Below are positions 30,993 to 53,139 of a DNA stretch of 64,000 nucleotides, piece after piece; within the stretch, counting starts at the first letter, position 1; every line of letters begins with the position of its first letter. The position numbers and the translations under genes are program-made. Source of the stretch: Bacillota bacterium (GTDB taxonomy: Bacteria; Bacillota; Clostridia; Christensenellales; UBA3700); contig JAEWXG010000012.1 of NCBI GenBank assembly GCA_023396095.1, forward strand, positions 253,365-317,364. Direction: 5' to 3'. Under the pieces are notes generated by a model. That model was not told where the DNA came from. It saw only the letters and a program-made list of their open reading frames with translations, and ran no database searches.

Positions 30993-32183
30993 TTATATTA
31001 ACCCAATAGGGCAATACCAAATATTCTTATTAATAGGAAATAATTCATCTGCCATACAAATTACTAACCCAGGTTTAATAGTCATATCAAACTTGCTCAA
31101 AACATTAAAGTTCTTATTTGAGGAAGATGGATTTTTACCCTTTTTTACTTCAATAGGATAAATACAATCAGGACCAATCATTAATAAATCAATTTCTTTT
31201 TTATCTAAATCGCGATAAAAGTATAAATTAGCATTTTTCCCGCAGTTAGTATAACCTTTTAATATTTCCCCAACAACATAAGTTTCAAAAAAAGCACCAG
31301 ATGCATTTCCATTTTTAAGAGTTTCTGCGTTGGGCCAAGATGTCAAATAGGCAGCAAGTCCTGTATCTAAAAAATAGCATTTTGGCGTTTTGGCAAGTCT
31401 TTTTGTAATATTAGATAAATAAGGTTTCATAATATAAATGATTCCCGATCTTTCTAGTATTGAAACCCATTCTTTTATAGTGGGCACTGAAACACCTACC
31501 ATTTTTGAGATAGAATCATATTTTAATTCCTGAGCTGTATTAGCAGCCATACAAGTAACAAAGGATCGAAATTCTTCCAGTTTCCCAACTTGCTCTAAAG
31601 AACTTATGTTCCTTTCAATATAAGTGTTAATATATGATGAATAGTAAACATCCCTATCCATATCTTTATTCAAAGCGAATTGAGGCAATCCTCCCCTAAA
31701 TATATCCGCGAAAACTTCATCTAATGTTCTTTTTGTATTTTCCTTCTTCTTTAATAAATCTATTTCCGGCAAAAATGGCTCTTTTATATTCGAACAAATC
31801 TCATTATGCGACAAAGGTAACATATTAAAAATTGCAACCCTCCCCGCAAGTGACTCCGAGACGTTTTTCATCATAACAAATTTTTGCGAACCACTTAACC
31901 AAAACAAACCATTTTCTTTTTTCTCATCTACAATTTTTTTTATCTCTAGAAGAAATGATGGCACTCTTTGAAATTCATCAATAAATACTTTATATCCGTA
32001 TGTTTCAAAAAATAATTCCGGATCATTTTTTGCAAGCGCCCTTATTTTAGCATCATCAAATGAAACATATTTTCTGTCACTCTCTTTTAAATGTTGCAAC
32101 ATAGTCGACTTACCGGTTTGCCTTTGCCCGCAAACCATAACAACAGGGAAAGTTTTCGATGCCTTCAGTATTGATTCTTCCAT
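30993..32183 (-). CDS. AAA_14 + DUF4143 (COG1373-type) ATPase with PD-(D/E)xK-like C-terminal domain
   Basis: Walker A VCGQRQTGKST, Walker B KVFIDEFQ, and a C-terminal EIDLLMIGPDCIYPIEVKKG (D...ExK pattern). 396 aa. Confidence 0.75.
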   Translation of the reverse strand: MEESILKASKTFPVVMVCGQRQTGKSTMLQHLKESDRKYVSFDDAKIRALAKNDPELFFETYGYKVFIDEFQRVPSFLLEIKKIVDEKKENGLFWLSGSQKFVMMKNVSESLAGRVAIFNMLPLSHNEICSNIKEPFLPEIDLLKKKENTKRTLDEVFADIFRGGLPQFALNKDMDRDVYYSSYINTYIERNISSLEQVGKLEEFRSFVTCMAANTAQELKYDSISKMVGVSVPTIKEWVSILERSGIIYIMKPYLSNITKRLAKTPKCYFLDTGLAAYLTSWPNAETLKNGNASGAFFETYVVGEILKGYTNCGKNANLYFYRDLDKKEIDLLMIGPDCIYPIEVKKGKNPSSSNKNFNVLSKFDMTIKPGLVICMADELFPINKNIWYCPIGLI

Positions 32184-32374
32184 TTGTCTTTTTAGATAGT
32201 ACGTTCCCTTCCTCCTATTTTTCTAAAGCCTACTTTATTTTACTATATTTTACTGTATTAATTAGTATTTACCAACTTTTTCCCGTATTTTCTAAAGTGT
32301 ACTTTATTTTTTACGGTTTTTTGAGCGCATTTACTACTTCTCGCTATAAATTTTTAGAAATCTTTTTTAAGTCC

Positions 32375-32407
32375 AAATAAAAAACTACCTAGATTTTATC
32401 TAAATAG
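32375..32407 (-). terminator. candidate rho-independent terminator after the DUF1858 gene
   Basis: Minus-strand RNA reads CUAUUUAG-AUAAAAU-CUAGGUAG (8 bp including two G-U pairs) followed by UUUUUUAUUU. Confidence 0.45.
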
Positions 32408-32478
32408 CCTTTTTTAAACATTGTCCTTTTCAAATATGATTGCGACTCTAATTCTCACCTGTTTCTAAATAAGTTTTC

Positions 32479-32688
32479 TTATTTTTTCCCAGCCGCTTCA
32501 TTTAAGGCTGCAACCATTACTTCTGGATCAACACCATGCACCATAGCGGCTTCTTCTACTGTTTCTCCATGTGCTAATGCACATCCCAAACAATGCATTC
32601 CAAACGAAAATAAAGTATTAGCAATTTCTTCTTGATTACCTTGCCTTAAAGCATCCGCCAACAACATTTCTTTTGTTATTTTTCCCAT
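32479..32688 (-). CDS. DUF1858-type small redox-disulfide protein (hybrid-cluster-protein-associated family)
   Basis: 69 aa with FGMHCLGCALAHGETVEEAAMVHGVDPE. The gene starts 2 nt after the lipoprotein stop. Confidence 0.7.
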   Translation of the reverse strand: MGKITKEMLLADALRQGNQEEIANTLFSFGMHCLGCALAHGETVEEAAMVHGVDPEVMVAALNEAAGKK

Positions 32689-32690
32689 CT

Positions 32691-34004
32691 TTATTTACTC
32701 TCCTTTTTTTCAATTGCTTCTCCAATCAATAATCCTTCCTTGTCAACATCTTCAATGTCATTCCTATATAATTGCTTATCTGAATCAGCGATATAATATA
32801 CTTTACCTTCCAAGAATTCTGGTTGATACCATGTTAAGAATACTTTTATATTAGAAATTTTTTGAGGTAATGTCGTTGCCCCATCAGAAATATCTAGCTT
32901 ATATAAATAGCCGTCACTGGTATAAACCATGTATCTCCCCTCTTTTGCAATTAAAGTAGCACTTGTAGGAAAATCTATAGCGTAAATTTTTTCAACATTA
33001 TCTTGAACCCCAATTAATTGTTGATTTCTTATGAAAAATACCTCATTGTTCATAACTACTAAAGAATCTGAAACAATGCCATTAACAACTTTCTTTACTG
33101 ATTGCTGATTAATACTTCCATCATTATTTAAAGATACTCTAAAAAGCCCAACATTATTCACTGCGTTTCCATCAAATATTGATTTTGTAAAATATATAAA
33201 ATGATTTTCACCCTCATCAAACCATGTCTTTAAACTATATTCTGCCTTATCTAATTTAACTTCTTCATTTTTTCCGTTTATATCTATCTTTATAACTTTG
33301 GCTCCCTCTAAATAGTCTTCCGTTTTGGTTGTATAAAAAGCATATTTGCTAATTACATTGTTACTGGTATCACTCGAATAAGGAAAAACTATTGTTTCTA
33401 TGCCACTAGCTATTTCTTTCTCTTTTTTCTCAACTAATTTTTCATTGTATTTTTTTACATATAGACTACCTTCTTTAAAATACATAAGCCCATCTTTTGT
33501 AAACTTATGTTTTACATCATTCCCCTTAATAGTACTAACCAATTGAGTATTTTTACCATCCAATGATGTTCTCATATAATTTAAAAAAGATGTTTGTATT
33601 GCCCCTGTAGTTTTATGCAAATCAGTACTTGGTGTTGTGTAATATATCCAATTTCCGTAAATAACTAAGCCGGAACCCTTTGCGTTGCTATATACTACTG
33701 TTGGAACAACTAATTCCGCTTTTGCGCCATCAACATTTTTCATTCTATAAATGGCTCCTTTTTTCATCTTTCCAAATTCATTGTCCGATGGTTCTTTTAT
33801 ATCGGTCGCAGGAACATACCCGTTTATAAAGTACTTATAATCTCCATGGTTTAAAACAAGCCCAGAGTTTGATATTGTTTTTGCACTCTGTGTATCACCA
33901 GTTAAAGTAATGCCTGTCTTAAATTTGGCACAAGATGTAAGCAATATCATTGCTATAAGAGTTAATATTATAAAATTCACTACTAAAATTTTTTTACTTT
34001 TCAT
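32691..34004 (-). CDS. DUF5050-like beta-propeller lipoprotein
   Basis: Signal peptide plus lipobox LLTSC. Recurring blades are marked by aromatic pairs (GNWIYYTTPS, HFIYFTKS, GYLYKLD, GKVYYIADSDKQLYR). 437 aa. Confidence 0.65.
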   Translation of the reverse strand: MKSKKILVVNFIILTLIAMILLTSCAKFKTGITLTGDTQSAKTISNSGLVLNHGDYKYFINGYVPATDIKEPSDNEFGKMKKGAIYRMKNVDGAKAELVVPTVVYSNAKGSGLVIYGNWIYYTTPSTDLHKTTGAIQTSFLNYMRTSLDGKNTQLVSTIKGNDVKHKFTKDGLMYFKEGSLYVKKYNEKLVEKKEKEIASGIETIVFPYSSDTSNNVISKYAFYTTKTEDYLEGAKVIKIDINGKNEEVKLDKAEYSLKTWFDEGENHFIYFTKSIFDGNAVNNVGLFRVSLNNDGSINQQSVKKVVNGIVSDSLVVMNNEVFFIRNQQLIGVQDNVEKIYAIDFPTSATLIAKEGRYMVYTSDGYLYKLDISDGATTLPQKISNIKVFLTWYQPEFLEGKVYYIADSDKQLYRNDIEDVDKEGLLIGEAIEKKESK

Positions 34005-34911
34005 CGTTATATCCTTTCTCTATATATTTTTCATATATTTTTTTTGCAAAATATACATCTTGAATTGAAATTCCTATATTGTAAACTAATATACGTTCCT
34101 TTTGGCTTTTTCTTCCTTCAACATTTTTATTTACAACATCACAAACTTCATTCACAACTTTCATTCTATCAAAATTTTTAAATCCTCTAACATGCTCTAT
34201 ATCATCAACAAAAACTTTATCAAAACTCAAATCGCAATTTGAAAAGCCACGAGTATGAATAGGAATAACTGTGACACCATTTTCAAAATTTTCCTCTTGA
34301 AAAAAATCCTTTTCCGCATATGTAACAGCAGAAATTATCACTTGACTCCCTTTCAATAAAGTATCATCATCGCAATATTCAAAAATAAAATTTTTATGAT
34401 CGATAAAACTAGTAGCCATTTTAACATGTTGATCTTTATATTTTTTCAATTTAATAATAAATCTCCTATGTGGTAATATATCCCTTAATACACTTAAAAA
34501 TGAAAAAGCAATATTGCCCAATCCTATCATGGTTATAGTATCATAATCGTTAACAGCAAATGTCTCCATAGAATGAACCGCTACAACAGCTGTTCTCACA
34601 TTAGTAATCCATGTCCCATCCATTAAAGCAAGAAGCTCTCCTGATTTTAATTCATATAATAAAATATCACCCATAATACTAACTTCTCTGTCGGGATAAC
34701 GTGTTACAACCTTAACTCCAAAAACATTTTCTGTCCCCATCAATGATGGCATTATATTAAAAAAAAATCCCTTCACCTCATCTGTTTTTATGCTAATTTT
34801 GGGCGGTAAAATTGCATTTTTTTTACTTTTTATTACTTCTTTACCCCATTGGTAGCAGGTCACATAATCTATATCTAACTTTTGTATATCATCTCTTGTA
34901 ATTATCTTCAT
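33994..34911 (-). CDS. ornithine cyclodeaminase / mu-crystallin family NAD(P)-dependent enzyme
   Basis: Colinear with the OCD family: WITNVRTAVVAVHSMETFA, Rossmann loop MIGLGNIAFSF, VIISAVT, and LVYNIGISIQDVYFAKKIY. Confidence 0.75.
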   Translation of the reverse strand: MKIITRDDIQKLDIDYVTCYQWGKEVIKSKKNAILPPKISIKTDEVKGFFFNIMPSLMGTENVFGVKVVTRYPDREVSIMGDILLYELKSGELLALMDGTWITNVRTAVVAVHSMETFAVNDYDTITMIGLGNIAFSFLSVLRDILPHRRFIIKLKKYKDQHVKMATSFIDHKNFIFEYCDDDTLLKGSQVIISAVTYAEKDFFQEENFENGVTVIPIHTRGFSNCDLSFDKVFVDDIEHVRGFKNFDRMKVVNEVCDVVNKNVEGRKSQKERILVYNIGISIQDVYFAKKIYEKYIEKGYNDEK

Positions 34912-36747
34912 TTATTCTCCATTATCGTTAAAATACCTAGTTATACTATCTAATAGTAAATTATTATCATCCACATCTCTTATCGCTATTCTAACAAAAT
35001 TCTTTTTCCCTATACCATCTTTTCCTTTTAAGTTTTTAATTAAAATATTATATTTTTCCAACATAGTATAACAAAATTTATTGGAATCATGCTCTTTTAG
35101 ATCAAACATAATATAATTTGCGTTTGATTGATACAATTTAATATTTTTATTCTTGCTCAATGTTTTCTCTACTCTTTCCCTTTCATTAACTATTTTTATG
35201 CATGCGCTCTCATATGTCTTTTTAAAAATATTATAATTTTGCAAATAATATTCCGCAAAACTATTAATATTCCAAACTGGCAACATTCCCTGCATTTCTT
35301 TTATTAATTTTTTATCTCCACTAGCCATAACACCTAGTCTTAGCCCTGGAACACCATAAGATTTTGAAATACTTTTAATAACTATTAAATTTGTATAGTT
35401 TAAAAGGATTCCATTCTTTAATAAAGTAAAGTATGAATCTCTTGCTGCAAAATCAATAAATGACTCATCTATAATTATTTTGCAGTTATAGTCTGCACCT
35501 TTCTTTATAATAGCCATAATATCTTCTTCTTTTATCATTGCTCCTGATGGATTATCTGGAGAAATTATCACCATATACTCAACGCTTTCTATCAACAGTA
35601 ATATTTGCTCAATATTATACTCATAATTATTCTTGGAATTATCAATAATCATCATTTTATCTATATTAAAGCATCTTATATATTCATTAAATGTTGGTAC
35701 AAATGCTACTCCTTGCAAATTGTTAAATTTTTCCCCTAAAATTTTTATTAATTCAGCCGCTCCATTACCAACCAATAACATATCCCCATCTACAGCAAAA
35801 ATCCTCTCTGCGTTCAATTTTTGTATTTGCATCCCTGATGGATACATCTCTAGTAAATTCTTAAACTCATATTTCATCTTTTCAATCAACTGCGCTGGTG
35901 GAAAATAAGGGTTTACAAGATATAAAAAGTCCTTTACTCTACTATATCTCCAGAACCCTCCATATGTCGAAGTTAACAATCTATATTTTTCTTCACCTTT
36001 TGAAAAAATAACATTTGCAATCGCCAAGTCCTGCTTATCATCAATCTCATACCATTCAAGTTCCTTAATGTTATAAGCTTGTATTTCCACATATGGTATT
36101 GTCAATATCGTTTTTAAAACCGACTCGTAATATGAGTTACACCCGCATACATCGATATATGTTTTCAAAAATGGGATATATGTTTTCTGTGAAAATTCTT
36201 TAGATAATTTGTAAATGTTAACAGTTTTATAATATCTGTGCGAATGTTCATAATCTAACTCATCTTTTGAATAAAAATTATCAATTATTCCATTAGAGCA
36301 TGTAATAATGGTACCATCCATCCATGTTTGATAGTCTGCAACTGCCGCAGAATTAGCGTATTTAGTCTCAACCATTTGCTGAACAATTTTTTCATCATAT
36401 ACTAAATCTGACTCAAGTAAAATTGTATCTTCCGCACTTAAATAATCTTTTGCTAAGTATAAAGAATATATATTATTCGTTACTTCAAAAATTTTATTTT
36501 TAACAAAGATAAAATCAATTTTGCTGTTTTTATATTTATCATTTATATACCGCTTAAGATTGTCACCTTTATACCCAACAACAATAATGATTTTTTTAAT
36601 CCCTGCTTTCGTAATAGCCGAAACTGCTCTATCTATCAATTTCACGCCTGCTACTGAAACCATGCACTTTGTGTTATTTTCAGTTAAATCACCCAATCTT
36701 GTTCCTTTCCCAGCTGCCAATATAATTGCTTGCACCATACCCTCCAT
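34912..36747 (-). CDS. fusion protein: LicC-like nucleotidyltransferase (N-terminal) + CobD/HisC-like class I/II PLP enzyme (C-terminal)
   Basis: N-terminal motifs: AIILAAGKGTRLGDLTENNTKCMV, IIIVVGY, TNNIYSLYL, WYEIDDKQDL. C-terminal motifs: LLVGNGAAELI, SPDNPSG, IIDESFIDF, KSISKSYGVPGLRLG, PVWNINSFA, VRIAIRD. The true start is possibly the GTG at 36735, 5 nt after GGAGG. Confidence 0.8.
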   Translation of the reverse strand: MEGMVQAIILAAGKGTRLGDLTENNTKCMVSVAGVKLIDRAVSAITKAGIKKIIIVVGYKGDNLKRYINDKYKNSKIDFIFVKNKIFEVTNNIYSLYLAKDYLSAEDTILLESDLVYDEKIVQQMVETKYANSAAVADYQTWMDGTIITCSNGIIDNFYSKDELDYEHSHRYYKTVNIYKLSKEFSQKTYIPFLKTYIDVCGCNSYYESVLKTILTIPYVEIQAYNIKELEWYEIDDKQDLAIANVIFSKGEEKYRLLTSTYGGFWRYSRVKDFLYLVNPYFPPAQLIEKMKYEFKNLLEMYPSGMQIQKLNAERIFAVDGDMLLVGNGAAELIKILGEKFNNLQGVAFVPTFNEYIRCFNIDKMMIIDNSKNNYEYNIEQILLLIESVEYMVIISPDNPSGAMIKEEDIMAIIKKGADYNCKIIIDESFIDFAARDSYFTLLKNGILLNYTNLIVIKSISKSYGVPGLRLGVMASGDKKLIKEMQGMLPVWNINSFAEYYLQNYNIFKKTYESACIKIVNERERVEKTLSKNKNIKLYQSNANYIMFDLKEHDSNKFCYTMLEKYNILIKNLKGKDGIGKKNFVRIAIRDVDDNNLLLDSITRYFNDNGE

Positions 36748-36918
36748 GAAAAAGCAATCCTATGCTATTCAAATGTATATTTTATACTATATCATTTTTA
36801 ATATAATATTTCATATTTTCCCGATAAATATTATTAGGCATGGTTGGTAAAGCTAGGTAAAAGTGAAGTTAGGAGTTAGAGCATCTTAAAAAAGCGGATT
36901 CATTTTTTTTTCGCATAT

Positions 36919-37665
36919 TTAACATTCGTTAATTAAATGTGTCGGTTTTCTATCTTTTCCAACAGGTAATTTCATATAATCTCCATATTCTTTTTTTAAA
37001 TGCTGATCATATTTTGCAACTATTTTTATATTTATTCCATCAAATGGAACCTCTAACATCTCATCAAAAAAATCAACATCCTCAAAAACTGGTTTGGCAA
37101 AACCATAATAATAACGAAGCTTTTTTCCCTCCTTTCTCTCAATGACGCAACTATACAGTTTTGCTACCACATATGACTTTTTAATAGGGATAAGTAAAAA
37201 ATTAAAAATCCGTGCAAGAAGTTTTTTGAAAACTTTTTGCATTGTACCTATTTGCTCTTTTTGCTTCAAAAGCAATATAGTTTTATAAAATTTTATTCTT
37301 TTTTTACATTTTTTCGTGTCGATTGTTGTTTTGATAAAAGGAAAAATATCTATAAAAGCATCAAACTTCTTGCCATTTACAACGACTTCTTTTTTTATTT
37401 TTGTAAACGCTACATTAAAATAATTCTTTTTTTGAAAATTAAAAATCTCACAATCACCCTTATAATCATTAATGAATAATAAATAGTCTTCCTCAGGCAT
37501 CATCACATCTATATCATCATCCCACGGTATAAACCCTTTATGCCTAATAGCCCCCAAAAGCGATCCGTAGGCTAAACTATAAGTTAAATTATTCTCTTTG
37601 CAAAAATCTGCAAATTCTTTTAACATCTTGAGTTCCTCTTCTTGTATTATTTTTAAATCTTTCAT
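36919..37665 (-). CDS. licD: LicD-family phosphotransferase (CDP-alcohol-phosphate to glycan)
   Basis: YSLAYGSLLGAIRHKGFIPWDDDIDVMMPEEDY. 248 aa. Confidence 0.85.
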   Translation of the reverse strand: MKDLKIIQEEELKMLKEFADFCKENNLTYSLAYGSLLGAIRHKGFIPWDDDIDVMMPEEDYLLFINDYKGDCEIFNFQKKNYFNVAFTKIKKEVVVNGKKFDAFIDIFPFIKTTIDTKKCKKRIKFYKTILLLKQKEQIGTMQKVFKKLLARIFNFLLIPIKKSYVVAKLYSCVIERKEGKKLRYYYGFAKPVFEDVDFFDEMLEVPFDGINIKIVAKYDQHLKKEYGDYMKLPVGKDRKPTHLINEC

Positions 37666-39080
37666 TTTTCTCCCTTTTTAATTATTCCCTTAAAAATTAA
37701 AAATAAAAATTTCAAATCTTTAAGATACAGAAGTGTAATGAGAATAACAGAACACGCCTGTACCGCATAAACAATCCATTCTCCAGCTACATATAAATAA
37801 ATATTTGAAAAAGCAGAACATAATAATAAAATATGTGTAACGATATTTTTGACATATGGAATCTCTATATTACTATATTTTTTTGTGTCAAAACATCTAT
37901 AAACACTTAAAAATGCATAGGCAATTACCCCTGAATATAGTGCCCCTTGAATGCCAAATTTAGGTATTAAACTTATTGAAAAAATTGCCGACACAATAGC
38001 ACTAATGAATGTTGATAAAAAATTTTTCAAACTTTTCATCTCTACTCCATAAAAAACCCCGTAAAAAGCAGCATAGCATGCATAAGAAGCCATTATTATA
38101 GAAAAAGATGAATATCTCCAAACTTCAAAAAATTCTCCTCGCAATAAAAACTTCGCAATCGGAAATAAAGCTATTAAAAGTAAACTTGTTCCAATTTTAA
38201 TAAATGCATTAAATGCTCCATACACCATTGTGTTAAATACACTTCGATCTTCGTCTTTTTTCGCTTCCACTGCAGAAATTGTCCAGGCTTGCATAAAAAC
38301 CACAGAAAAGGCTGTTATGATTGCCCCTATTTTTAATGTCGAAATATATAGGCCATTGCTTGCATCTCCGTGATAATATGTAACTATATATCGGTTCAAT
38401 GTTTGTATAATCCACCAACTTAACATGTTAGGAATTAATGGTAGAGAGTACTTAACCATTCTTTTAAATAAGTTGACATTAATTTCTTTAAACTTTAATT
38501 CTTTATATAGTTTTCCAAATACTACCCAAAATAAAATAGAAAAATAATTAGATATAACAATTGCAAGCAGATAACTATATTTTGTATATCGCACTCGATA
38601 AAACAATATCCAAAGAACTAATGCTAAACCTAAAACTTTTAATATCCCTCCTGAAATATAAATTTTTAATCGCTTTATTGCTCTCAAATATTGCGAGAAA
38701 AAATTGTTCAAAACTATACTAAAGTATAAAAAGATAATTAATAGATAATACTGCAAGTTTCTATTAATAAAGTAGATCAAAACCCCTAAAACAAAAAAAG
38801 CACTTGTCGTAATAAAAATAAATATTCCTGTAGAAAATGCCGCTTTCGCCTTGCTGTTATCTTTACCTATAGAAAATCTAAAAATCGAATCAGATATACC
38901 TAAAGTTAATATTGGAAAAAGCAGCTCTATCAAGGCCATCCAATTTTCACTTTCCCCAAAATCATTTAATGCAATCTTTCTTGTTATTAACGGCAATAAT
39001 AAAAATTGTATTATCTTAATAGTAACTTCACCAACTGCAAATATTGCAGTGTTTTTAAACAACTCCTTTCCGCGCCCCAT
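37662..39080 (-). CDS. wzx: Wzx-type oligosaccharide flippase (MOP superfamily)
   Basis: 472-aa polytopic protein with an estimated 12-14 TM segments. Context is a glycan cluster. Confidence 0.75.
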   Translation of the reverse strand: MGRGKELFKNTAIFAVGEVTIKIIQFLLLPLITRKIALNDFGESENWMALIELLFPILTLGISDSIFRFSIGKDNSKAKAAFSTGIFIFITTSAFFVLGVLIYFINRNLQYYLLIIFLYFSIVLNNFFSQYLRAIKRLKIYISGGILKVLGLALVLWILFYRVRYTKYSYLLAIVISNYFSILFWVVFGKLYKELKFKEINVNLFKRMVKYSLPLIPNMLSWWIIQTLNRYIVTYYHGDASNGLYISTLKIGAIITAFSVVFMQAWTISAVEAKKDEDRSVFNTMVYGAFNAFIKIGTSLLLIALFPIAKFLLRGEFFEVWRYSSFSIIMASYACYAAFYGVFYGVEMKSLKNFLSTFISAIVSAIFSISLIPKFGIQGALYSGVIAYAFLSVYRCFDTKKYSNIEIPYVKNIVTHILLLCSAFSNIYLYVAGEWIVYAVQACSVILITLLYLKDLKFLFLIFKGIIKKGEK

Positions 39081-39081
39081 C

Positions 39082-39837
39082 TTATTTTTTTCCTATTTCT
39101 ATAATGTTATGCCCACTTATTCTCTTTTCTTGTGGTGGAAATTCCATATAATCATCATAGTAATTTTTCAAAATTAAATCAAAATTAACACAAGTAGATA
39201 TTTCCTCTCCCTCGAATAATAACTTTCCTGTCAATTTAATATCGTTCCATTTTAATAATTCTGGTTTATATTTACTAATCACTTTAATGTTGTCATAATC
39301 ATTCAATTCCAACATATTTAATTTATATATTTTATATTGTAACTTTTTTATATTAAATAATCTTGAAATCAACTTCAAAACTTTAATATAAAATCTCTTT
39401 TGTTTAGGCATAAATCTTACTGCTACGATTTTACAATATAAGCTCTCTTTTAATAAATTATATTTCTTTTTTTGAAAACCACTAACAAAAAATAAATCAA
39501 TATAATATGTTATCTTATAATCAACATGCTCAAACTCTTTTTCTTTAATTAACGTTCCCTCTTTTAATCCTACTTTAGGAAAAACATATGGATAATTTTT
39601 AACAGTAAGACAATCATATAATTCCAATTTATTATTGGACAAAACTAAAGATTTTATTTTAGAATAATCTTCTCCTTTAATCCAAATATCTATATCATCA
39701 TCCCACGGAATAAACCCTTTATGTCTCACCGCTCCAAGCAAACTGCCATAGCTTAAAGAATACCAAATATCATTTCTTTCAAATACTTTTACAATTTCCA
39801 ATAATACTTGTAAAAGTTCTTGTTTTGATTTATTCAT
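39082..39837 (-). CDS. licD: LicD-family phosphotransferase, second paralog
   Basis: YSLSYGSLLGAVRHKGFIPWDDDIDIWIKGEDY. 251 aa. Confidence 0.85.
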   Translation of the reverse strand: MNKSKQELLQVLLEIVKVFERNDIWYSLSYGSLLGAVRHKGFIPWDDDIDIWIKGEDYSKIKSLVLSNNKLELYDCLTVKNYPYVFPKVGLKEGTLIKEKEFEHVDYKITYYIDLFFVSGFQKKKYNLLKESLYCKIVAVRFMPKQKRFYIKVLKLISRLFNIKKLQYKIYKLNMLELNDYDNIKVISKYKPELLKWNDIKLTGKLLFEGEEISTCVNFDLILKNYYDDYMEFPPQEKRISGHNIIEIGKK

Positions 39838-39885
39838 TAATCTTACCTCGCAAAAAACAATCTCAATAATACTTTAAAATTTGAT

Positions 39886-40992
39886 TTAAATCATACTATT
39901 TAATATTTCACAAAACTTCTTTTGCATCGAAGATAAATCATATTGATTTATCCAAGAATCATCATATAATTCTCTATTATGATACACATCTACAGATAAA
40001 ATCTCTTTTCGCCAAGAGTTTATGTCGTTAAATAGAGCAATTTTTGCTCTTTCATTTGCAACATGCAACTTGCTTAGGTTATCACCTATAACTACAGGCA
40101 AATTGCACGCCTGTGCTTCAATTGCCGCTAGTCCCAACCCCTCGTGCAAAGAAGATAAACAATATATATCCATAGCAGAGAAATAATCGCTAACATTATC
40201 TTTTCTTCCTAACAATTTAACTCTCTCCTGTAAATTTAAGTTTATGATTTTTTGTTCGATTGTTATTTTATCATCTCCTTCTCCTATAAGAATTAGCTTA
40301 TAATTTAATGGCAATTTTGTTAAAACATTTAACAAAAATATATAATTCTTAATTTTACATAATGCTCCTACTGCGCCTAAAACTATATCTCCCTCTTTAG
40401 CATCTATCTCTCGTCTCATTTGTTGTCTTTTTTCTTTATTAAATTTAAATTTTTCAATATCAACAGAATTTCTGAGCAAAAAAAATCTTTTTCCTTTTAA
40501 TAATTTAGGATTTATCATTTTTTCACGTATCTCATCTACACATCCTATAAAAACGTCATTGTATTTATAATATCTTTTCTCTATATAAGGTTTCAAAACC
40601 TTAATTAACATTTTCTTAAAACGATTATAGTAATCATCTTCCAAAAATAGCCCATGGATATGTGTAATAACTTGTGCCCCAGAATTTTTAGCAGCTTTTA
40701 ATATTTTATAGTCCAATAATTCCCCTGTGTTATACCAAAAAAAATCATATTTATCTTGAAATATCCTTTTAACATCACTATAATGACCTATCAAGCTGTT
40801 AGAAATGCTTCTCAACATAATTAATTTATATCCTCTATTTTCTATTTCTTTCATATAATTCGTTTGCAAGTTATCTAATGTTATTAATGTTATTTCAAAA
40901 TCTTTAAAATATTCGCATTTTAACAAATTAAATACAACCTCGGACACACCTCCTTTTGTATGCCCTATATGATAAACCAGCAATTTTTTCAT
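39886..40992 (-). CDS. GT4-family (GT-B) glycosyltransferase
   Basis: C-terminal E-x7-E region SSLHEGLGLAAIEAQACNLPVV. 368 aa. Confidence 0.85.
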   Translation of the reverse strand: MKKLLVYHIGHTKGGVSEVVFNLLKCEYFKDFEITLITLDNLQTNYMKEIENRGYKLIMLRSISNSLIGHYSDVKRIFQDKYDFFWYNTGELLDYKILKAAKNSGAQVITHIHGLFLEDDYYNRFKKMLIKVLKPYIEKRYYKYNDVFIGCVDEIREKMINPKLLKGKRFFLLRNSVDIEKFKFNKEKRQQMRREIDAKEGDIVLGAVGALCKIKNYIFLLNVLTKLPLNYKLILIGEGDDKITIEQKIINLNLQERVKLLGRKDNVSDYFSAMDIYCLSSLHEGLGLAAIEAQACNLPVVIGDNLSKLHVANERAKIALFNDINSWRKEILSVDVYHNRELYDDSWINQYDLSSMQKKFCEILNSMI

Positions 40993-42374
40993 TTTCTCCT
41001 CCTAAAAAGTTTTTGCATATATTTAATCAAATATATTATTGTAAAAATCATTAAACAATTTTCAAAACTGCCAAATATAGAATTTCTTGGAAGCATGATT
41101 ATTATATATATAACATAATTAAACATTGGTCCCCAAAAACCAAACTGATTACTATTTTTTATTATTAATAACACTCTTCCTAATAGCATATTTATAATAA
41201 TTATTCCTGGAAAACCACACAACAAAAATGCCTCTGCTATATACGATGTCCCCATACCGTGTCCACTTAAATAGAGCTCCTTATTTGTTAAATATGAAAT
41301 AAGATTAGAAAATGGAACCCCTTCTCCAATTAATTCTGTATTTTGAGTAAAATTTTTAAAAACTGACCCTGTAAATCTATAATATAGTGGGTATAAAACA
41401 TTCTTCCACCCTGAATCTAGTTGCCCCATCTTGTCTATAGTATTTGCAATAACTGAGTCGGACCCTCCATTACTAGAAAATAATCCCAATATCTTTTTTA
41501 TAAGTCCACCAGTTAAGTCACCTGTCGTTCTATTATTTTGGGTTGCAACAAAAAGCAATAACATGAAAATTGCCCCGGAAACAACAATTAAAAAGATCCT
41601 TTTTGTTATCATCATATTTTTAACATTAAATATTGCATATGCTGATAAAAAAACAAAGAGAGCCCCAATCGCGGAACGATTCCCCAATATAATGTTGAGC
41701 CCGCCCAATGTAAAAATAATTAGAGCCGCCAAAACAAATTTTTCTTTTTTATTGTTCGTATAAGAAAATAAAACAAAAAATATTAAGATATATAATCGAT
41801 TAAATATCTTTACAAACGCGCTAACTTCTATATTGTGCAAAAAACTCCCATAATACCCAAACTGTTTATAAATTGTTATTTTTTTTAAAAAAACATAAAC
41901 AGAGCATATCAACGAAATAATAAATAACACGCGCAACAAATTGAGCATCCATTGTGAACAATTCTCTGATTCACTCTTGGACTCATTTATGTAATAGCAA
42001 TGATACCCGTAATAAATCATTATAAGAGATATTATTATCATATTTGCATACAAACAATACTGCTCTTTATCCAATAATAACTTTTGAAAAGTATTAAACT
42101 GATTGAATGGATATCCTTCTCTTAAGTACAAAATTGGCTTTTGTCCTAATAAGAAAAAATAAAATGTCAAAAAGAATATGATAATATAAATATTTTGCTT
42201 AATTCCTTGCCCGACAATTCGTGATAATATAAGAAAATAAAAAAAATAGATAGCAAAAGGCAATATGATAATTTCTTCCCCTAAAAAGTAAAAAATATCA
42301 AGCACAAATAATAAAATTAAATTCTTTATTACAAATTTTTTATTCTTATTTATTTGTTCATATCCAAAATTCAC
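40989..42374 (-). CDS. wzy: Wzy-like repeat-unit polymerase (polytopic membrane protein)
   Basis: 461 aa with more than 10 predicted TM segments and low conservation, in the expected position in a Wzx/Wzy cluster. No diagnostic motif was found. Confidence 0.55.
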   Translation of the reverse strand: MNFGYEQINKNKKFVIKNLILLFVLDIFYFLGEEIIILPFAIYFFYFLILSRIVGQGIKQNIYIIIFFLTFYFFLLGQKPILYLREGYPFNQFNTFQKLLLDKEQYCLYANMIIISLIMIYYGYHCYYINESKSESENCSQWMLNLLRVLFIISLICSVYVFLKKITIYKQFGYYGSFLHNIEVSAFVKIFNRLYILIFFVLFSYTNNKKEKFVLAALIIFTLGGLNIILGNRSAIGALFVFLSAYAIFNVKNMMITKRIFLIVVSGAIFMLLLFVATQNNRTTGDLTGGLIKKILGLFSSNGGSDSVIANTIDKMGQLDSGWKNVLYPLYYRFTGSVFKNFTQNTELIGEGVPFSNLISYLTNKELYLSGHGMGTSYIAEAFLLCGFPGIIIINMLLGRVLLIIKNSNQFGFWGPMFNYVIYIIIMLPRNSIFGSFENCLMIFTIIYLIKYMQKLFRRRK

Positions 42375-43264
42375 TATATTTTCCCTCTTAATACCAATAT
42401 CAGCAACCCTATCTTATATTTCAACGGAGTATCAATTGAAAAGATAAATTGAAATTTTTCAGATTTCGTTAAAATGCCTTTCATATCGCCCCCTTTTAAT
42501 GCTAATGCTATAACCCCTTTCATATAGTGTATACTAGCAATTTTTTTGTTCTCACTTTTCTCATCTAAAATAAAATACTTTCTTATTTCCAACTCTTTTT
42601 TGTTTTTTTCAATGCTTTTTAAATTAGATAAACTAGTACTTGATTCGTGTTGAAAGTATAAATATAATTTATTTTTAAGAAATTTTATTTTTTCCACCTT
42701 TTTAAAAATCTCATAATTAAATTTCTGATCTTCGGCATTTATGCAATCTGTTGGAAATAACGTATCTCCTATAATTTTCTTAGAATAAACATATCTACAA
42801 GTGCTATATAAATTATTGTTTTTAAATTTCCACTTCTGCAATGAATCATTATTTATATTTTGAGAATTAATTTTTTTTATGTATGAACTAGGTTTAAATT
42901 TATCATTCACTTCGTCATATAAAAATCCAAGCACATCAATATCATAAGAAAGATTTTTTACAATTATTTCGAAATAATTGTCATACAAGGCATCATCTGC
43001 ATCCAAAAACGAAATATATTCCCCAGTAGCCAAATTAATACCTACATTACGGGCTTCTGAAGGCCCCTTATTTTCCTGACTAAAAATTTTATACTTATTA
43101 TTTTTTTTTGTATATTCTTGCGCTATACTCAAAGTCTTATCTGTTGATCCATCATTTATTAAAATAATTTCCAAATTTTTATATGTTTGATTATTTATAG
43201 AAATAAGGCATCTCTCTAAGTATTTTTCAACGTTATACATAGGAATTATTATACTAATCTTCAT
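42374..43264 (-). CDS. GT2-family glycosyltransferase
   Basis: ISIIIPMYNVEKYLERCLISINNQTYKNLEIILINDGSTD and FLDADD. Confidence 0.88.
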   Translation of the reverse strand: MKISIIIPMYNVEKYLERCLISINNQTYKNLEIILINDGSTDKTLSIAQEYTKKNNKYKIFSQENKGPSEARNVGINLATGEYISFLDADDALYDNYFEIIVKNLSYDIDVLGFLYDEVNDKFKPSSYIKKINSQNINNDSLQKWKFKNNNLYSTCRYVYSKKIIGDTLFPTDCINAEDQKFNYEIFKKVEKIKFLKNKLYLYFQHESSTSLSNLKSIEKNKKELEIRKYFILDEKSENKKIASIHYMKGVIALALKGGDMKGILTKSEKFQFIFSIDTPLKYKIGLLILVLRGKI

Positions 43265-44297
43265 TTTGTCCCCTTATGAAAAAACCATAAAAACTGCCAA
43301 TCCCATAACAGATATGCATTAACGGAAAAATAAAAAATACCAATGCCATACTAAATTTTTTTTCATTTATGATACTTTTCAAAGTAATTACAGCATCCAA
43401 AAATCCATATAATACAAATATTAAAAATAAGGGAATTAAAGCAATCAAAAAAAGTGGGTTTTTCCACATCAAACTAAGTCCCATAACCCCGAGTGCGATT
43501 GAAGCACATAGCGACAAAAAAAACAAAAGTGGGATAAAGTGATATAATGAGAACATTTTAATATTAGATTTTGCAGCAATCGTAATCCATTTCCCATTGT
43601 TGAATTTTTGTTTTAACATTCCTTTTATGTCATCTCTCACAAAATAAAAACTTTTAACATCAGAAAACATTATGATTTTGAATCCATTACTTCTTATTCT
43701 AAACGAATAATCATTGTCTTCTGCTCTTAAATATTTTTCATTATATACGCCTATTGTTTCATAAACTTGACGTGTTAATATTAACTGATTTGTAGTATCA
43801 ACCTCTAATGGCACACTTATCTCTGTCTTTTTGTGAGCCCCCACACTGCTACCAAAAACTGCATTTTCAGCATCTAATATTAGCCTACTTTTTAATGTCT
43901 GATTTAGAGAAACCCTTTCACAAATTGATCCTACAATACTATATCCTTCCTCAACATGCCTAATAGCATTTTCAACAAAATCTTTTGTCAAAAATGAATG
44001 TGCATCAACGTGAAAAAATATGTCCCCTTTTGCAGCTTTCATCCCAAGATTTCTCCCCGCTGCTTGTATTTTTTTATCATTCTGCAATATTTGGATATCC
44101 ATGTACTCTTTAATATTGTTTTTCTTAAATTGAAAAAATTTTTCTTGCGTTAAATCTGTTGACCCTCCATCAACAAAAACAATTTCTGTTAATTTTTTTG
44201 CATATGATTGTTGCTTAATACTCTCTAACAATTTATCTAAATATTTTTCTTCATTTAATGCAATTACTATAATGCTCGCAATTTTGTCTCTTCCCAT
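43254..44297 (-). CDS. GT2-family glycosyltransferase with C-terminal TM helices
   Basis: ASIIVIALNEEKYLDKLLESIKQQSY...VFVDGGSTD, HVDAHS and AEDNDY. Three to four C-terminal hydrophobic helices. Confidence 0.85.
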   Translation of the reverse strand: MGRDKIASIIVIALNEEKYLDKLLESIKQQSYAKKLTEIVFVDGGSTDLTQEKFFQFKKNNIKEYMDIQILQNDKKIQAAGRNLGMKAAKGDIFFHVDAHSFLTKDFVENAIRHVEEGYSIVGSICERVSLNQTLKSRLILDAENAVFGSSVGAHKKTEISVPLEVDTTNQLILTRQVYETIGVYNEKYLRAEDNDYSFRIRSNGFKIIMFSDVKSFYFVRDDIKGMLKQKFNNGKWITIAAKSNIKMFSLYHFIPLLFFLSLCASIALGVMGLSLMWKNPLFLIALIPLFLIFVLYGFLDAVITLKSIINEKKFSMALVFFIFPLMHICYGIGSFYGFFIRGQNED

Positions 44298-44942
44298 CTA
44301 TTTCTTCCCTTTTATTTTTAGCACTGTGCATAAAATTATTTTAACATCCATACCTATTGTAAAATTTTCAATATACTCTAGCCCATAATTTATTTTGATG
44401 GGCATAATATCTGTAATGTATTTATCCCTAGGATTATCAGTTTTACTCAAAATTTCATTTTCATCTCGAAATTTTATTGACGCAATTTCAGTTATCCCTG
44501 GCTTAACTAATAGCACATTTTTTTGCTCTTCGTTATACAAATCAACATACTCTCTTACTTCTGGACGCGGGCCAACAAAACTCATATTTCCGATTAAAAC
44601 ATTAAATAACTGTGGCAACTCATCAATTTTAGTTTTTCTTAACATCTTTCCTGCTTTTGTTATTCTTGCGTCCTCTGAAGTAGAAATTTGCAGCCCTTTT
44701 CGATCGGCATCTTTTACCATAGTCCTAAATTTATATATTTTAAAATCCATATTGTTTTTTCCAACTCTTACTTGTTTATAAATGCCACCACCCTTGCTAG
44801 TACAAGCAACTAATAGATATACAATAATGAATAATGGTAATAGTAGAAGAATCCCAAAGAACGAAAATAGAATATCAAAACATCTTTTACAAAATAAGGT
44901 AAATTTTTTCTTCTTTAATATTTCTTTATACTTGTTTTCCAT
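44298..44942 (-). CDS. small monotopic undecaprenyl-phosphate sugar-phosphate transferase (PglC/WcfS-like initiating enzyme)
   Basis: YKFRTMVKDAD and KIDELPQLFNVLIGNMSFVGPRPE. 214 aa with a single N-terminal hydrophobic hairpin. Confidence 0.88.
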   Translation of the reverse strand: MENKYKEILKKKKFTLFCKRCFDILFSFFGILLLLPLFIIVYLLVACTSKGGGIYKQVRVGKNNMDFKIYKFRTMVKDADRKGLQISTSEDARITKAGKMLRKTKIDELPQLFNVLIGNMSFVGPRPEVREYVDLYNEEQKNVLLVKPGITEIASIKFRDENEILSKTDNPRDKYITDIMPIKINYGLEYIENFTIGMDVKIILCTVLKIKGKK

Positions 44943-46131
44943 TTATTATTTCTCCAACTTTTTCGATTATATATGAAATTTCATTATCTTTTAATAATGT
45001 GTGCAATGGCAATGTAATCTCATTTTTATATTGTTGATATGCATTTGGATAATTTTTTATATCAAATCCCAACTCTTTATAAGCAGTATGCATTGGTAAT
45101 GGCTTATAATGAACATTAGTAGCTATTCCTCTTTGTGCCAATTTTTCAACGACTCTATTACGACTTTCCTCGCTATCAATATTATAAAAACGTGTTAAAT
45201 ATAGGTGCCCACTTGATACAGCATAACTTGTTTTGTGTCGCAATAAATCTGCATGTTCAATAAATGCTTGATCATACTTTCCTATTATTTCATGCCTTCT
45301 TCTCAACATATTCTCATATCGTTCCAATTGTGCCAGTCCTAATGATGCCAATATATCTGTCATGTTGCATTTATATCCCAAAAGTTTAATGTCGTATTCC
45401 CAAGCTCCAATTTTTGTTTTTGCTAAAGCATCTTTACTTTGTCCATGCAAAGACCATAACATAAAATCAGAATATAACCACTCACTAATATCATTAAATT
45501 TATGATTCCATACAACTGCTCCGCCCTCTGCTGTTGTTAAATTTTTTACTGCATGAAAACTAAATGATGTAAAGTCAGCATGTAATCCACTCTTTATTCC
45601 ATTTTTCATCGCTCCAAAACTATGTGCAGCATCAGCAATTATAAAAATTTGCCCATTTTTCTTTTGCAAATCATTACTAGGCTTAAATATACTTTTTTTG
45701 TCATCAACAATCTTATAAATTCTCTCATAGTTACATATAATTCCTGCAATGTCTACTGCTATGATTGCTTTTGTTTTATTGGTAACTAATTTTGCAAGTT
45801 GATCATAATCCATCTCATAAGAATTTTGCGCTGTATCACAAAGTACTATTTGTGCTCCTACATGACAAATAACGCTAGCACTAGCCGTATAAGTATATGC
45901 GGAAGTTATAACTTCATCCCCAGGACCTACTCCTAAAATTCTCAAGATTAATTCCAACCCCGCTGTTGCAGAGTTCAAGGCCACTGCTTTATTACAACCA
46001 ACATACTCTGCAATTTTCCTTTCAAACTCTTTCGTTTTTGGCCCAGTCGTAATCCACCCCGATTTTAATGCATCAACAACTAACCCTACTTCCTTTTCTG
46101 TAATATCAGGTGGTGAAAACTTTATATTCAT
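44926..46131 (-). CDS. DegT/DnrJ/EryC1-family sugar aminotransferase (nucleotide-4-keto-6-deoxyhexose aminotransferase type)
   Basis: ALNSATAGLELILR and the PLP lysine context FSFHAVKNLTTAEGGAV. 401 aa. Confidence 0.88.
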   Translation of the reverse strand: MNIKFSPPDITEKEVGLVVDALKSGWITTGPKTKEFERKIAEYVGCNKAVALNSATAGLELILRILGVGPGDEVITSAYTYTASASVICHVGAQIVLCDTAQNSYEMDYDQLAKLVTNKTKAIIAVDIAGIICNYERIYKIVDDKKSIFKPSNDLQKKNGQIFIIADAAHSFGAMKNGIKSGLHADFTSFSFHAVKNLTTAEGGAVVWNHKFNDISEWLYSDFMLWSLHGQSKDALAKTKIGAWEYDIKLLGYKCNMTDILASLGLAQLERYENMLRRRHEIIGKYDQAFIEHADLLRHKTSYAVSSGHLYLTRFYNIDSEESRNRVVEKLAQRGIATNVHYKPLPMHTAYKELGFDIKNYPNAYQQYKNEITLPLHTLLKDNEISYIIEKVGEIINGKQV

Positions 46132-52464: not shown

Positions 52465-53139
52465 TTATTTGTTTAATATCTTTTTTATCAATCTGACTTT
52501 CTCCCCAGTATTAACATTAACAACCGCATCATACATATTTATTTTCTCCACACCATCTAACACAATCAAATATGTCTTTACTTCTTCGTTAAAATTTATT
52601 AAATACATTTTTTCTATTTTATAGATTTTGTTTTTGTATATTAATTGAAATTTTTCTTGACTATTAAGATACTTCCAACTATTTTTTTTCACTTCTATAA
52701 GACCTATATTCTTGTCATCACTTTGTAAATTTACAGAGAGTATGTGCTCTCCTTTTTTGAATTGTGTCCCTTTTTGAATACTTCTAGGATTATATTGCAC
52801 AATTCCTTTAAATTGTTCTTGAAAATCATTTTCATAATTTACTGTAGCCTCTCCGACTGGAGGATCTCCTGCTTTAGAAAGAACATTATATTTAAAGCTA
52901 TAAAGTTCCTCTCCCACATTTACTACTTCTCCATTTGCCGCCCCAATATTTAAAATAACACCATCATTAATAGCATAATAGTTTATTGTTGCATTATTTA
53001 CATCAAAAACTACTTCGTTAGAAACTTTCCCAAAAAACAATGTTGCTATAACTATCAAAACAACAAGGGTTATTAAACTAATAGCTGTTTTTTTACACAA
53101 CCCTTTATTATCTGAAAACCACTCTTTAATGTTTTTCAT
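52465..53139 (-). CDS. membrane-anchored hypothetical protein (possible barrel-sandwich/HlyD-like fold)
   Basis: 224 aa with the N-terminal TM AISLITLVVLIVIATLFFG. The segments GVILNIGAANGEVVNVGEELYSF and KGTQFKKGEHILSV resemble lipoyl-like hybrid motifs. The fold call is weak. Confidence 0.4.
   Translation of the reverse strand: MKNIKEWFSDNKGLCKKTAISLITLVVLIVIATLFFGKVSNEVVFDVNNATINYYAINDGVILNIGAANGEVVNVGEELYSFKYNVLSKAGDPPVGEATVNYENDFQEQFKGIVQYNPRSIQKGTQFKKGEHILSVNLQSDDKNIGLIEVKKNSWKYLNSQEKFQLIYKNKIYKIEKMYLINFNEEVKTYLIVLDGVEKINMYDAVVNVNTGEKVRLIKKILNK

Follow-up and report, generated by a model that had tools for sequence, protein, structure and literature searches.

Why would an enzyme predicted to make a phosphorylated amine be joined in one polypeptide to an enzyme predicted to activate such an amine with a nucleotide, and what is the function of the ornithine cyclodeaminase-like gene directly behind it? 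This question is raised by a polysaccharide locus in a 64,000-nucleotide (nt) stretch of a Bacillota genome of the lineage UBA3700 (GenBank assembly GCA_023396095.1, contig JAEWXG010000012.1, positions 253,365 to 317,364), here called the window. An initial annotation of the window, made from its letters alone, had noted an open reading frame (ORF) of 611 amino acids (aa) in which a LicC-like domain is fused to a pyridoxal phosphate (PLP) domain of fold type I, followed by a gene of the ornithine cyclodeaminase/mu-crystallin (OCD) family. The module formed by these two genes is widespread and uncharacterized. We favor, at about even odds (a probability of roughly 0.5), the reading that the fusion and the OCD protein would be a self-contained head-group module in which phosphoserine is converted to ethanolamine phosphate and then to CDP-ethanolamine, the amine is N-(1-carboxyalkyl)ated at the expense of NAD(P)H, and the product is transferred by LicD.

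The fusion protein and its relatives

The ORF itself, Pfam, and the PDB matches (1jyk, 6oux, and 1lc5) all agreed with the two-domain composition. NTP_transferase (PF00483) matched residues 7 to 134 with 55 bits (cut-off, 21), and Aminotran_1_2 matched residues 323 to 597 with 90 bits (cut-off, 20). When the N-terminal nucleotidyltransferase (NT) domain was compared with the PDB by sequence, it matched LicC (1jyk; E = 4.7e-13) and the PntC domain of 6pd1 (E = 1.5e-11). Its first ~100 residues are ~45% identical to LicC; the nucleotide loop aligns with the AAGLGTRL of LicC, and WYEID aligns weakly with the LicC sequence YEIDS. The C-terminal domain aligned over its full length with SMUL_1544 (6oux; 140 bits, E = 9e-40, 30% identity), with which it has a YLxNPY motif in common. 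Other PDB matches were 3ftb (98 bits), CobD (1lc5; 73 bits, E = 2e-19), and HisC (8bj1; 71 bits). K571 and R586 align with R323 and R337 of CobD, which we take to be its phosphate-binding arginines.

All 22 homologs compared keep G13, G15, R17, L18, K27, NNIYS (91 to 95), and WYEID (232 to 236) in the first domain and N279, N399, D427, the Schiff-base lysine K462 (encoded at nt 35362 to 35364), K571, and R586 in the second. The motifs quoted in the initial annotation, including the catalytic lysine and the LicC signature residues, were thus present and invariant in this set and, with all catalytic motifs in place, the fusion is predicted to be catalytically intact. A second Met codon (M4, 36738) comes close after the listed ATG and would give a protein of 608 aa; this Met4 (MVQAIILAAG) may be the true start, as it better fits the N termini of the homologs. 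A GGAGG sequence lies just upstream in this start region (36738 to 36747), although at very short spacing.

The AlphaFold2 (AF2) model of the fusion had a pLDDT (predicted local distance difference test score) of 87. In Foldseek, its best whole-chain match in the PDB was PntC-AEPT (6pd1/6pd2), with an overall template modeling (TM) score of only 0.36, which is low because the domain types and their arrangement differ. The PLP half matched 6oux ([quoted passage not shown]) with a TMt of 0.76 to 0.81 and CobD (1lc5) with a TMt of 0.85.

The fusion is no rarity and belongs to a large family. The same two-domain architecture, at ~600 aa, is found in more than 120 protein-database clusters at 49 to 62% identity, and a scan of one genome per species gave at least 595 fusion loci in at least five phyla (Bacillota, Bacteroidota, Spirochaetota, Verrucomicrobiota, and Campylobacterota). 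The identical protein is present on four contigs from three sources. Public names of the relatives of both the fusion and the OCD protein are generic ("aminotransferase class I/II" and "ornithine cyclodeaminase"). The possibility of a fusion made by assembly, raised in the initial annotation, was rejected, since the architecture is kept in hundreds of genomes and the identical protein occurs on four independent contigs; the fusion is genuine.

The OCD protein and the slot beside the fusion

The OCD protein matched Pfam PF02423 (OCD_Mu_crystall) with 91.7 bits (cut-off, 24). Its AF2 model (pLDDT, 91) has a two-domain Rossmann fold, with TM scores of 0.79 to 0.85 to 6t3e, 1omo, 6rqa, 4mp6, and 1x7d, and these fold matches point to no single closest function. 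GLGNIA at residues 130 to 135 is the GxGxxA dinucleotide motif, and the invariant residues K67 and R106 align with the carboxylate-binding Lys and Arg of 6t3e, SbnB, and alanine dehydrogenase (AlaDH). SbnB (4m54) was also the second-best match of the OCD profile in the PDB, at 98 bits. Further basic residues, R71, K154, K159, H219, K232, H240, and R267, are invariant specifically in this subfamily and are candidates for a phosphate pocket. The closest homologs in the protein database are 50 to 54% identical, and by sequence the window protein belongs to a distinct subfamily of the OCD family. A C-terminal tail of ~15 residues ("...P-x-EKFWV") is nearly invariant in the members of 313 to 321 aa and is missing in the window protein and the other fusion-linked members of 296 to 305 aa; therefore, the subfamily has two length classes.

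We compared the gene neighborhoods of 85 fusion-carrying loci. An OCD homolog lies immediately downstream of the fusion, and codirectional with it, in 24 of these loci. In 13 of those that lack OCD, the same slot holds a protein of the Octopine_DH family (ODH; PF02317, 100 to 110 bits), which aligns along its whole length with octopine dehydrogenase from scallop (3c7a; E = 2e-34). Roughly 40% of the sampled fusion loci thus have one or the other of these enzymes, and the two were never found together in the 85. The OCD and Octopine_DH families have unrelated folds; what they have in common is their chemistry, the NAD(P)H-dependent reduction of the imine of an amine and a 2-oxo acid. The exchange is seen between two syntenic loci with the gene order c32-c113-TagF-like-X-fusion-...-GT2-Bac_transf, in which X is ODH in one (L040) and OCD in the other (L042); their flanking proteins are 52 to 75% identical and their fusions 70% identical. 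A third locus related to these two (L050) has a weakly GNAT-like gene in the slot, together with an AMP-dependent ligase, and in three loci from different phyla (L031, L038, and L046) a class I S-adenosylmethionine (SAM) methyltransferase of ~185 to 230 aa adjoins the fusion. Judged from this swapping of OCD, ODH, a GNAT-like gene, and a methyltransferase, the position beside the fusion thus appears to be a variable slot for amine tailoring. The methyltransferase could mean that there is also a de novo route to donors of N-methylated ethanolamine phosphate or phosphocholine.

The loci also contain candidate users of the product. A LicD homolog directly adjoins the fusion in 15 of the 85 loci and is within four genes on either side of it in 24 of the 84 loci other than that of the window; further fusion loci have TagF-like transferases.

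The OCD protein was found in the same company when it, and not the fusion, was the starting point. Its closest homologs adjoin a fusion (L088, from Anaerotaenia torta, and L089), a 2-aminoethylphosphonate (AEP) cluster, or a lone NT of the LicC/PntC type (L091). In the AEP clusters of L086, L087, and L093 the order is LicD, PntC-like NT, CTP-transferase-phosphoenolpyruvate (PEP) mutase, phosphonopyruvate decarboxylase, class V transaminase, and OCD. When metagenomes were scanned with the OCD profile, 80 further loci were found; the 42 with flanks of 1.5 kb or more on both sides were used for counting. A LicC/PntC-type NT was within 3 kb of the OCD gene in 35 of the 42, as part of a fusion in 19, of a PEP-mutase/AEP cluster in 7, and as a stand-alone gene in 9. 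The mean identity between AEP-linked and fusion-linked OCD proteins (50.6%) is like that within the fusion-linked set (49.5%), and by this comparison one OCD subfamily serves both contexts. Because the two groups are intermixed, the substrate feature that they share is probably H2N-CH2-CH2-(O)-P.

As a separate observation, members of this subfamily close complete AEP clusters in L086/L087 (2668 to 7948), L093, L096, L098/L099, L118, L138, L148, L150, and L168, often with LicD. This would imply an N-tailored phosphonate head group, of which we have seen no description.

A search with ODH gave 454 relatives, and two of their clusters consist of proteins in which Octopine_DH and LicD are one polypeptide, P0334 (L174, 2323 to 4110) and P0357. 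In all three ODH contexts sampled, the gene is directly downstream of the fusion in a LicD locus, in L174 as the ODH-LicD polypeptide itself. Ancylomarina euxinus is an example of a cultured carrier of the ODH type. On sequence evidence, these polypeptides are a "Rosetta stone" link between the tailoring and transfer steps. Strict mutual exclusivity of OCD and ODH was rejected, since the two co-occur six times among the OCD-centered loci; the co-occurrences in L122 and L166 look truncated, and that in L162 is cut by the contig end.

A 408-aa gene of the DUF1015 family (PF06245) is directly upstream of the fusion in at least seven loci, among them L175/L176 (3944 to 5170), L177/L178 (3945 to 5171), L089 (3914 to 5140), L095, and L111; it is not in the window. 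The protein has an "ADGHHRAAS" motif, shows only a faint hint of ParB (E = 0.077), and has no relative in the PDB or NCBIfam. It may be the missing serine kinase, although this is our own speculation.

Predicted pathway, known systems, and alternatives

The proposed pathway has four steps. In the first, the C-terminal PLP domain would form 2-aminoethyl phosphate by decarboxylation of a phospho-amino acid, for which O-phospho-L-serine is the likeliest candidate, as is suggested by the context and by the closest solved relative, SMUL_1544, a phosphoserine decarboxylase. In the second, the N-terminal LicC/PntC-type domain would use CTP to convert this product to CDP-ethanolamine, in keeping with its homology to LicC and PntC and with the parallel to PntC-AEPT. 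In the third, the OCD protein would use NAD(P)H to reduce the imine that the head-group amine would form with pyruvate, glyoxylate, or 2-oxoglutarate as the 2-oxo acid. The expected product is an opine-like N-(1-carboxyalkyl)aminoethyl phosphate; here we rely on the chemistry of the family and on the displacement of OCD by true opine dehydrogenases. In the last step, the LicD enzymes would move the phospho-head group onto the lipid-linked repeat unit before it is flipped.

We infer the identity of the amine, the oxo acid, and the order of the steps from comparisons of this kind. Ethanolamine phosphate is preferred because SMUL_1544 is the nearest solved relative and because the OCD subfamily is common to the AEP pathway. 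N-substitution would come after the PLP step because PLP chemistry needs a primary amine. The full order of decarboxylation, cytidylylation, N-alkylation, and transfer is speculative and is suggested by which steps occur fused, the PLP domain to the NT and the opine dehydrogenase to LicD.

That the fusion would both make and cytidylylate a phospho-amine for LicD had been proposed in the initial annotation, and the parallel to PntC-AEPT and the position of SMUL_1544 as the closest solved PLP relative support it. The further proposal, that the OCD protein would tailor the amine by opine-type chemistry, gains support from the ODH proteins in the same slot, the ODH-LicD polypeptides, and the OCD genes of the AEP clusters. 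The family offers precedent for such chemistry (PMC8446579 and literature cited therein): OCD-family enzymes alkylaminate 2-oxo acids, with pyruvate as a documented case, and the OCD homologs include tauropine and strombine dehydrogenases from sponges. With pyruvate as the oxo acid, the predicted product would be N-(1-carboxyethyl)ethanolamine phosphate; N-[(R)-1-carboxyethyl]ethanolamine phosphate (Cet-EtnP) is a known substituent of a Proteus mirabilis O-polysaccharide (PMC9630907).

How does this module compare with known systems? The nearest is PntC-AEPT of Treponema denticola (6pd1/6pd2), in which, likewise, a LicC-like cytidylyltransferase at the N terminus is followed in the same chain by the PLP enzyme that provides its amine substrate, and the product likewise feeds LicD-type decoration of surface glycans. 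The predicted joining of an amine-making enzyme to a nucleotide-activating enzyme therefore has a direct precedent. However, the PLP domain of PntC-AEPT is a class V transaminase (Aminotran_5), whereas that of the window fusion is of class I/II and CobD-like (Aminotran_1_2), and PntC-AEPT has a C-P phosphonate substrate that depends on PEP mutase. With tblastn we found no match in the window to PEP mutase, phosphonopyruvate decarboxylase, or AEP transaminase (all three queries from L086), or to opine dehydrogenase.

The LicC/LicD phosphocholine pathway of Streptococcus pneumoniae (1jyk) similarly combines a CTP:phospho-base cytidylyltransferase with LicD phosphotransferases acting on a wall glycan. 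In contrast to that pathway, the window module has no licB or licA for choline uptake or phosphorylation, its phospho-base is predicted to come from the fused PLP domain, and the C-terminal half of its NT domain diverges from the choline pocket of LicC. The family annotation took in ORFs of 180 aa or more and thereby most of the window outside a ribosomal-protein-like region (~24 to 31 kb). Among these ORFs, none belongs to the choline kinase, LicB, TagD, or PEP mutase families, which agrees with the absences of these families listed in the initial annotation. The module would work like the PntC-AEPT and LicC/LicD pathways but is a member of neither, because the class of the substrate-forming enzyme differs and because a dedicated imine-reducing step is added.

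The separate components have counterparts elsewhere. SMUL_1544 (6oux) and CobD (1lc5) share with the window protein the PLP fold type I, the Schiff-base Lys, the Asp and Asn residues, and basic residues at the phosphate site, but they are stand-alone enzymes of (nor)cobamide biosynthesis loci, whereas the window protein is fused and lies in a glycan locus. The opine dehydrogenases, of which the sponge tauropine and strombine enzymes belong to the OCD family and the scallop octopine dehydrogenase (3c7a) to the other, represent the two families that fill the slot beside the fusion. Using NAD(P)H, they condense a primary amine reductively with pyruvate or glyoxylate, a type of reaction that, by analogy, we propose for the window OCD; unlike it, they are enzymes of animal anaerobic metabolism acting on free amino acids or taurine. 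Taurine is a sulfonate isostere of aminoethyl phosphate and aminoethylphosphonate. SbnA and SbnB, which make a precursor of staphyloferrin B, are a similar pair: SbnA is a PLP enzyme that uses O-phospho-L-serine, and SbnB is an NAD enzyme of the OCD family whose substrate is an opine-like secondary amine. However, SbnA is a fold-type-II enzyme that performs a beta-replacement with loss of the phosphate, SbnB works oxidatively and releases L-2,3-diaminopropionate (L-Dap), and there is no cytidylyltransferase or LicD. The Cet-EtnP of P. mirabilis has the exact structure predicted for the product with pyruvate (PMC9630907), but so far it is a structure only, described from the O antigen of a Gram-negative bacterium. 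In the published literature that we searched, we found no genes for N-(1-carboxyethyl)ethanolamine phosphate and no description of an opine dehydrogenase that helps to build a nucleotide-activated glycan head group. A full-text literature search likewise found no characterized pathway in which LicC/LicD or PntC is combined with an OCD or an opine dehydrogenase, in agreement with the initial annotation, which knew of no such gene set.

Several results weigh against this pathway. The PLP domain scored 153 bits against the CobD equivalog (TIGR01140), with a cut-off of 290.55, and 151.7 bits against the HisC equivalog (TIGR01141), with a cut-off of 276.55. The two profiles are thus tied, and the domain is, by sequence, CobD/SMUL_1544-like but outside the CobD equivalog. 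In Campylobacter jejuni the CobD-like paralogs Cj1436 and Cj1437 are close and yet differ in reaction, one being a decarboxylase and the other a dihydroxyacetone phosphate (DHAP) transaminase; therefore, homology cannot fix the reaction of the PLP domain, and decarboxylases are not separable from transaminases in this family by such comparisons. The OCD protein was compared with the equivalogs for OCD, AlaDH, SbnB, BhcD, Pyr2C reductase, and EutC and reached none that is characterized; the best score was 101 bits to PRK08618 (cut-off, 417), with 73 bits to ala_DH_arch (TIGR02371; cut-off, 409) and 56 bits to SbnB (cut-off, 327). No serine kinase or other source of phosphoserine is encoded in the window. 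The co-occurrence of fusion and OCD that the initial annotation had looked to related genomes for holds in the 24 loci given above, but 48 of the 85 have neither OCD nor ODH; therefore, OCD is best regarded as an accessory tailoring enzyme. Lastly, L098/L099 and L165 carry OCD and ODH as an intact tandem, and the two may differ in step, oxo acid, or stereochemistry.

The first alternative retains the module but changes the amine. The PLP domain would be an L-threonine-O-3-phosphate decarboxylase giving 1-aminopropan-2-yl phosphate, or a DHAP aminotransferase like Cj1437 giving serinol phosphate, and the product would then be cytidylylated and N-tailored. This would account for the equal scores of the CobD (153 bits) and HisC (152 bits) profiles and for a structural similarity to CobD (1lc5; TMt, 0.85) as good as that to 6oux, and a switch of reaction type within the family has the precedent of Cj1436 and Cj1437. 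We nevertheless consider it unlikely. By sequence SMUL_1544, the phosphoserine decarboxylase, is the closest solved relative (140 versus 73 bits), the OCD subfamily shared with AEP clusters favors an unbranched 2-aminoethyl group, and there is no threonine kinase of the PduX type in the window.

The second alternative concerns the OCD protein, which could be an archaeal-type alanine (amino-acid) dehydrogenase that regenerates the amino donor or makes the substrate of the PLP step (for example, phosphoserine from 3-phosphohydroxypyruvate and NH3), with no tailoring of the head group. Its fold and profile do resemble those of the AF1665 alanine dehydrogenase (TIGR02371, 73 bits; 1omo, TM 0.83), the carboxylate-binding K67 and R106 are kept, and in the PEP-mutase clusters it adjoins AEP transaminases, which use the alanine/pyruvate couple. 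But the slot elsewhere holds Octopine_DH-family enzymes, some fused to LicD, that couple amines and not ammonia to oxo acids, and OCD is also paired with a lone cytidylyltransferase where no PLP enzyme is nearby (L091, L101, and others). A dedicated recycler would also be unusual, given the abundance of alanine and glutamate, and on balance we find this explanation rather improbable. Although the generic public annotation of the relatives would fit an incidental adjacency, with OCD in ordinary proline, ornithine, or lysine metabolism and the fusion an ordinary HisC or cobamide CobD with a nucleotidyltransferase, this can hardly be right: the adjacency is kept across phyla and in both search directions, neither protein reaches any equivalog cut-off (including that for HisC, which the initial annotation had named as the ordinary case), no histidine or cobamide genes are nearby (and none of the annotated window ORFs belongs to a histidine-biosynthesis family), and the setting is that of glycan loci, in which LicD or TagF-like transferases occur.

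If the preferred reading, a phosphoserine-derived and opine-tailored head group, is carried further, a more general proposal follows, which we hold tentatively and at somewhat less than even odds. Opine-phosphodiesters, by which we mean N-(1-carboxyalkyl)aminoethyl phosphate and the corresponding phosphonate, would be an unrecognized class of surface-glycan head groups in many anaerobic, largely host-associated bacteria. They would be made de novo and independently of choline by a phosphoserine decarboxylase joined to a cytidylyltransferase and by a glycan-dedicated opine synthase that evolved twice (OCD and Octopine_DH), and then transferred by LicD; Proteus Cet-EtnP, a 25-year-old orphan structure, would thereby gain its missing genes. 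On bacterial glycans, phosphocholine, phosphoethanolamine, and aminoethylphosphonate govern the charge of the surface, its recognition by C-reactive protein (CRP) and by natural antibodies, the resistance to antimicrobial peptides, and interactions with phages and the immune system. The module, if it acts as proposed, would be a widespread, self-sufficient bacterial route to donors of the CDP-ethanolamine type with no need for choline, and it would produce a new class of surface epitopes in the gut and rumen microbiota. A dedicated enzyme would turn a cationic amine into a zwitterionic opine. Two large families with generic names ("aminotransferase class I/II" and "ornithine cyclodeaminase" or "octopine dehydrogenase family") would gain a function, and new imine-reducing biocatalysts acting on phosphorylated amines would become available.

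The polysaccharide locus and the rest of the window

The fusion and OCD genes are at one end of a Wzx/Wzy heteropolysaccharide locus at ~33994 to 46131, and all genes of this region are on the minus strand (Table 1). The same order of polysaccharide genes adjoins the fusion-OCD pair in L003 to L005. In this low-GC genome (~26 to 36%), the GC content is 26 to 29% over the polysaccharide locus (34001 to 44000) versus 31 to 36% in its flanks, a drop typical of glycan loci that vary or are exchanged horizontally. The initial annotation had placed two LicD genes directly upstream of the fusion; there are two, but only one is directly upstream, the second being beyond the Wzx flippase gene.

Table 1. 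Genes of the polysaccharide region and domains of the fusion protein
Feature	Position (nt)	Strand	Description	Basis
Fusion	34912-36747	(-)	611 aa; LicC/PntC-type cytidylyltransferase + CobD/SMUL_1544-type PLP enzyme	Pfam, PDB matches, AF2 + Foldseek, architecture shared with homologs
N-terminal nucleotidyltransferase domain	35998-36747	(-)	~aa 1-250; GxGxRL loop aa 10-18, K27, NNIYS 91-95, WYEIDD 232-237	
C-terminal fold-type-I PLP domain	34915-35955	(-)	~aa 265-611; N279, N399, D427, K462, K571, R586	
OCD/mu-crystallin-family NAD(P)H enzyme (predicted)	33994-34911	(-)	305 aa; start directly abuts fusion stop	Pfam, AF2, profile vs PDB, conserved adjacency to fusion, AEP clusters, or stand-alone NT
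Predicted lipoprotein	32691-34004	(-)	437 aa; lipobox LTSC; 11-nt overlap with OCD gene	
DUF1858/redox-disulfide (CxxC) small protein	32479-32688	(-)	69 aa; 2 nt after lipoprotein gene	
LicD-family phosphotransferase 1	36919-37665	(-)	Presumed user of CDP-linked donor	Pfam LicD, 121 bits
Wzx-type flippase (Polysacc_synt)	37662-39080	(-)		Pfam
LicD-family phosphotransferase 2	39082-39837	(-)		Pfam LicD, 92 bits
Glycosyltransferase family 4 (GT4)	39886-40992	(-)		Pfam
Wzy polymerase	40989-42374	(-)		Pfam
GT2 (first)	42374-43264	(-)		Pfam
GT2 (second)	43254-44297	(-)		Pfam
Bac_transf initiating sugar-phosphate transferase	44298-44942	(-)		Pfam
DegT-type sugar aminotransferase	44926-46131	(-)		Pfam

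The junctions between the fusion, OCD, lipoprotein, and 69-aa genes are as the initial annotation had them. The 69-aa ORF matched DUF1858 (Pfam, 55 bits) and TIGR03980 (74 bits) and has an HCLGC motif. The 437-aa protein does have a lipobox, but it matched no Pfam or NCBIfam family, and its description as DUF5050-like was not upheld, as there was no match to DUF5050 even at E ≤ 1. Both genes are co-oriented and tightly packed with the OCD gene here, an arrangement specific to this genome. The initial annotation had listed them along with the fusion and OCD genes; they were rejected as pathway members since homologs of the two are lacking from all 85 fusion-centered loci and from the called genes of the OCD- and ODH-centered loci inspected. 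By this comparison they are probably outside the pathway. There is a possible extended -10 promoter upstream of the fusion; no minus-strand terminator was found inside 32100 to 37100, and an Rfam search of the window gave no riboswitch or other RNA.

The remaining annotated part of the window has genes for glycogen, arginine, and glycolysis functions, an alanyl-tRNA-synthetase-like gene, and a type III glutamine synthetase; at ~24 to 31 kb, the ORF sizes alone suggest a ribosomal-protein operon. Just downstream of the glycan locus, beside a run of small ORFs, is an ATPase of the AAA_14 + DUF4143 type (30993 to 32183, minus strand); a homologous ATPase is also near the AEP-OCD cluster of L087 (13068 to 14354), possibly by coincidence. 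Two minus-strand ORFs of 858 aa (55679 to 58255) and 224 aa (52465 to 53139) matched no Pfam family at E ≤ 1e-5; they sit beside genes for a GDSL lipase, an MFS_2 transporter, and a metallophosphoesterase. The alanyl-tRNA-synthetase-like protein, whose gene immediately precedes the glycan locus on its upstream side (46145 to 47923, minus strand; tRNA-synt_2c and SAD domains), has 592 aa and is shorter than the canonical bacterial enzyme.

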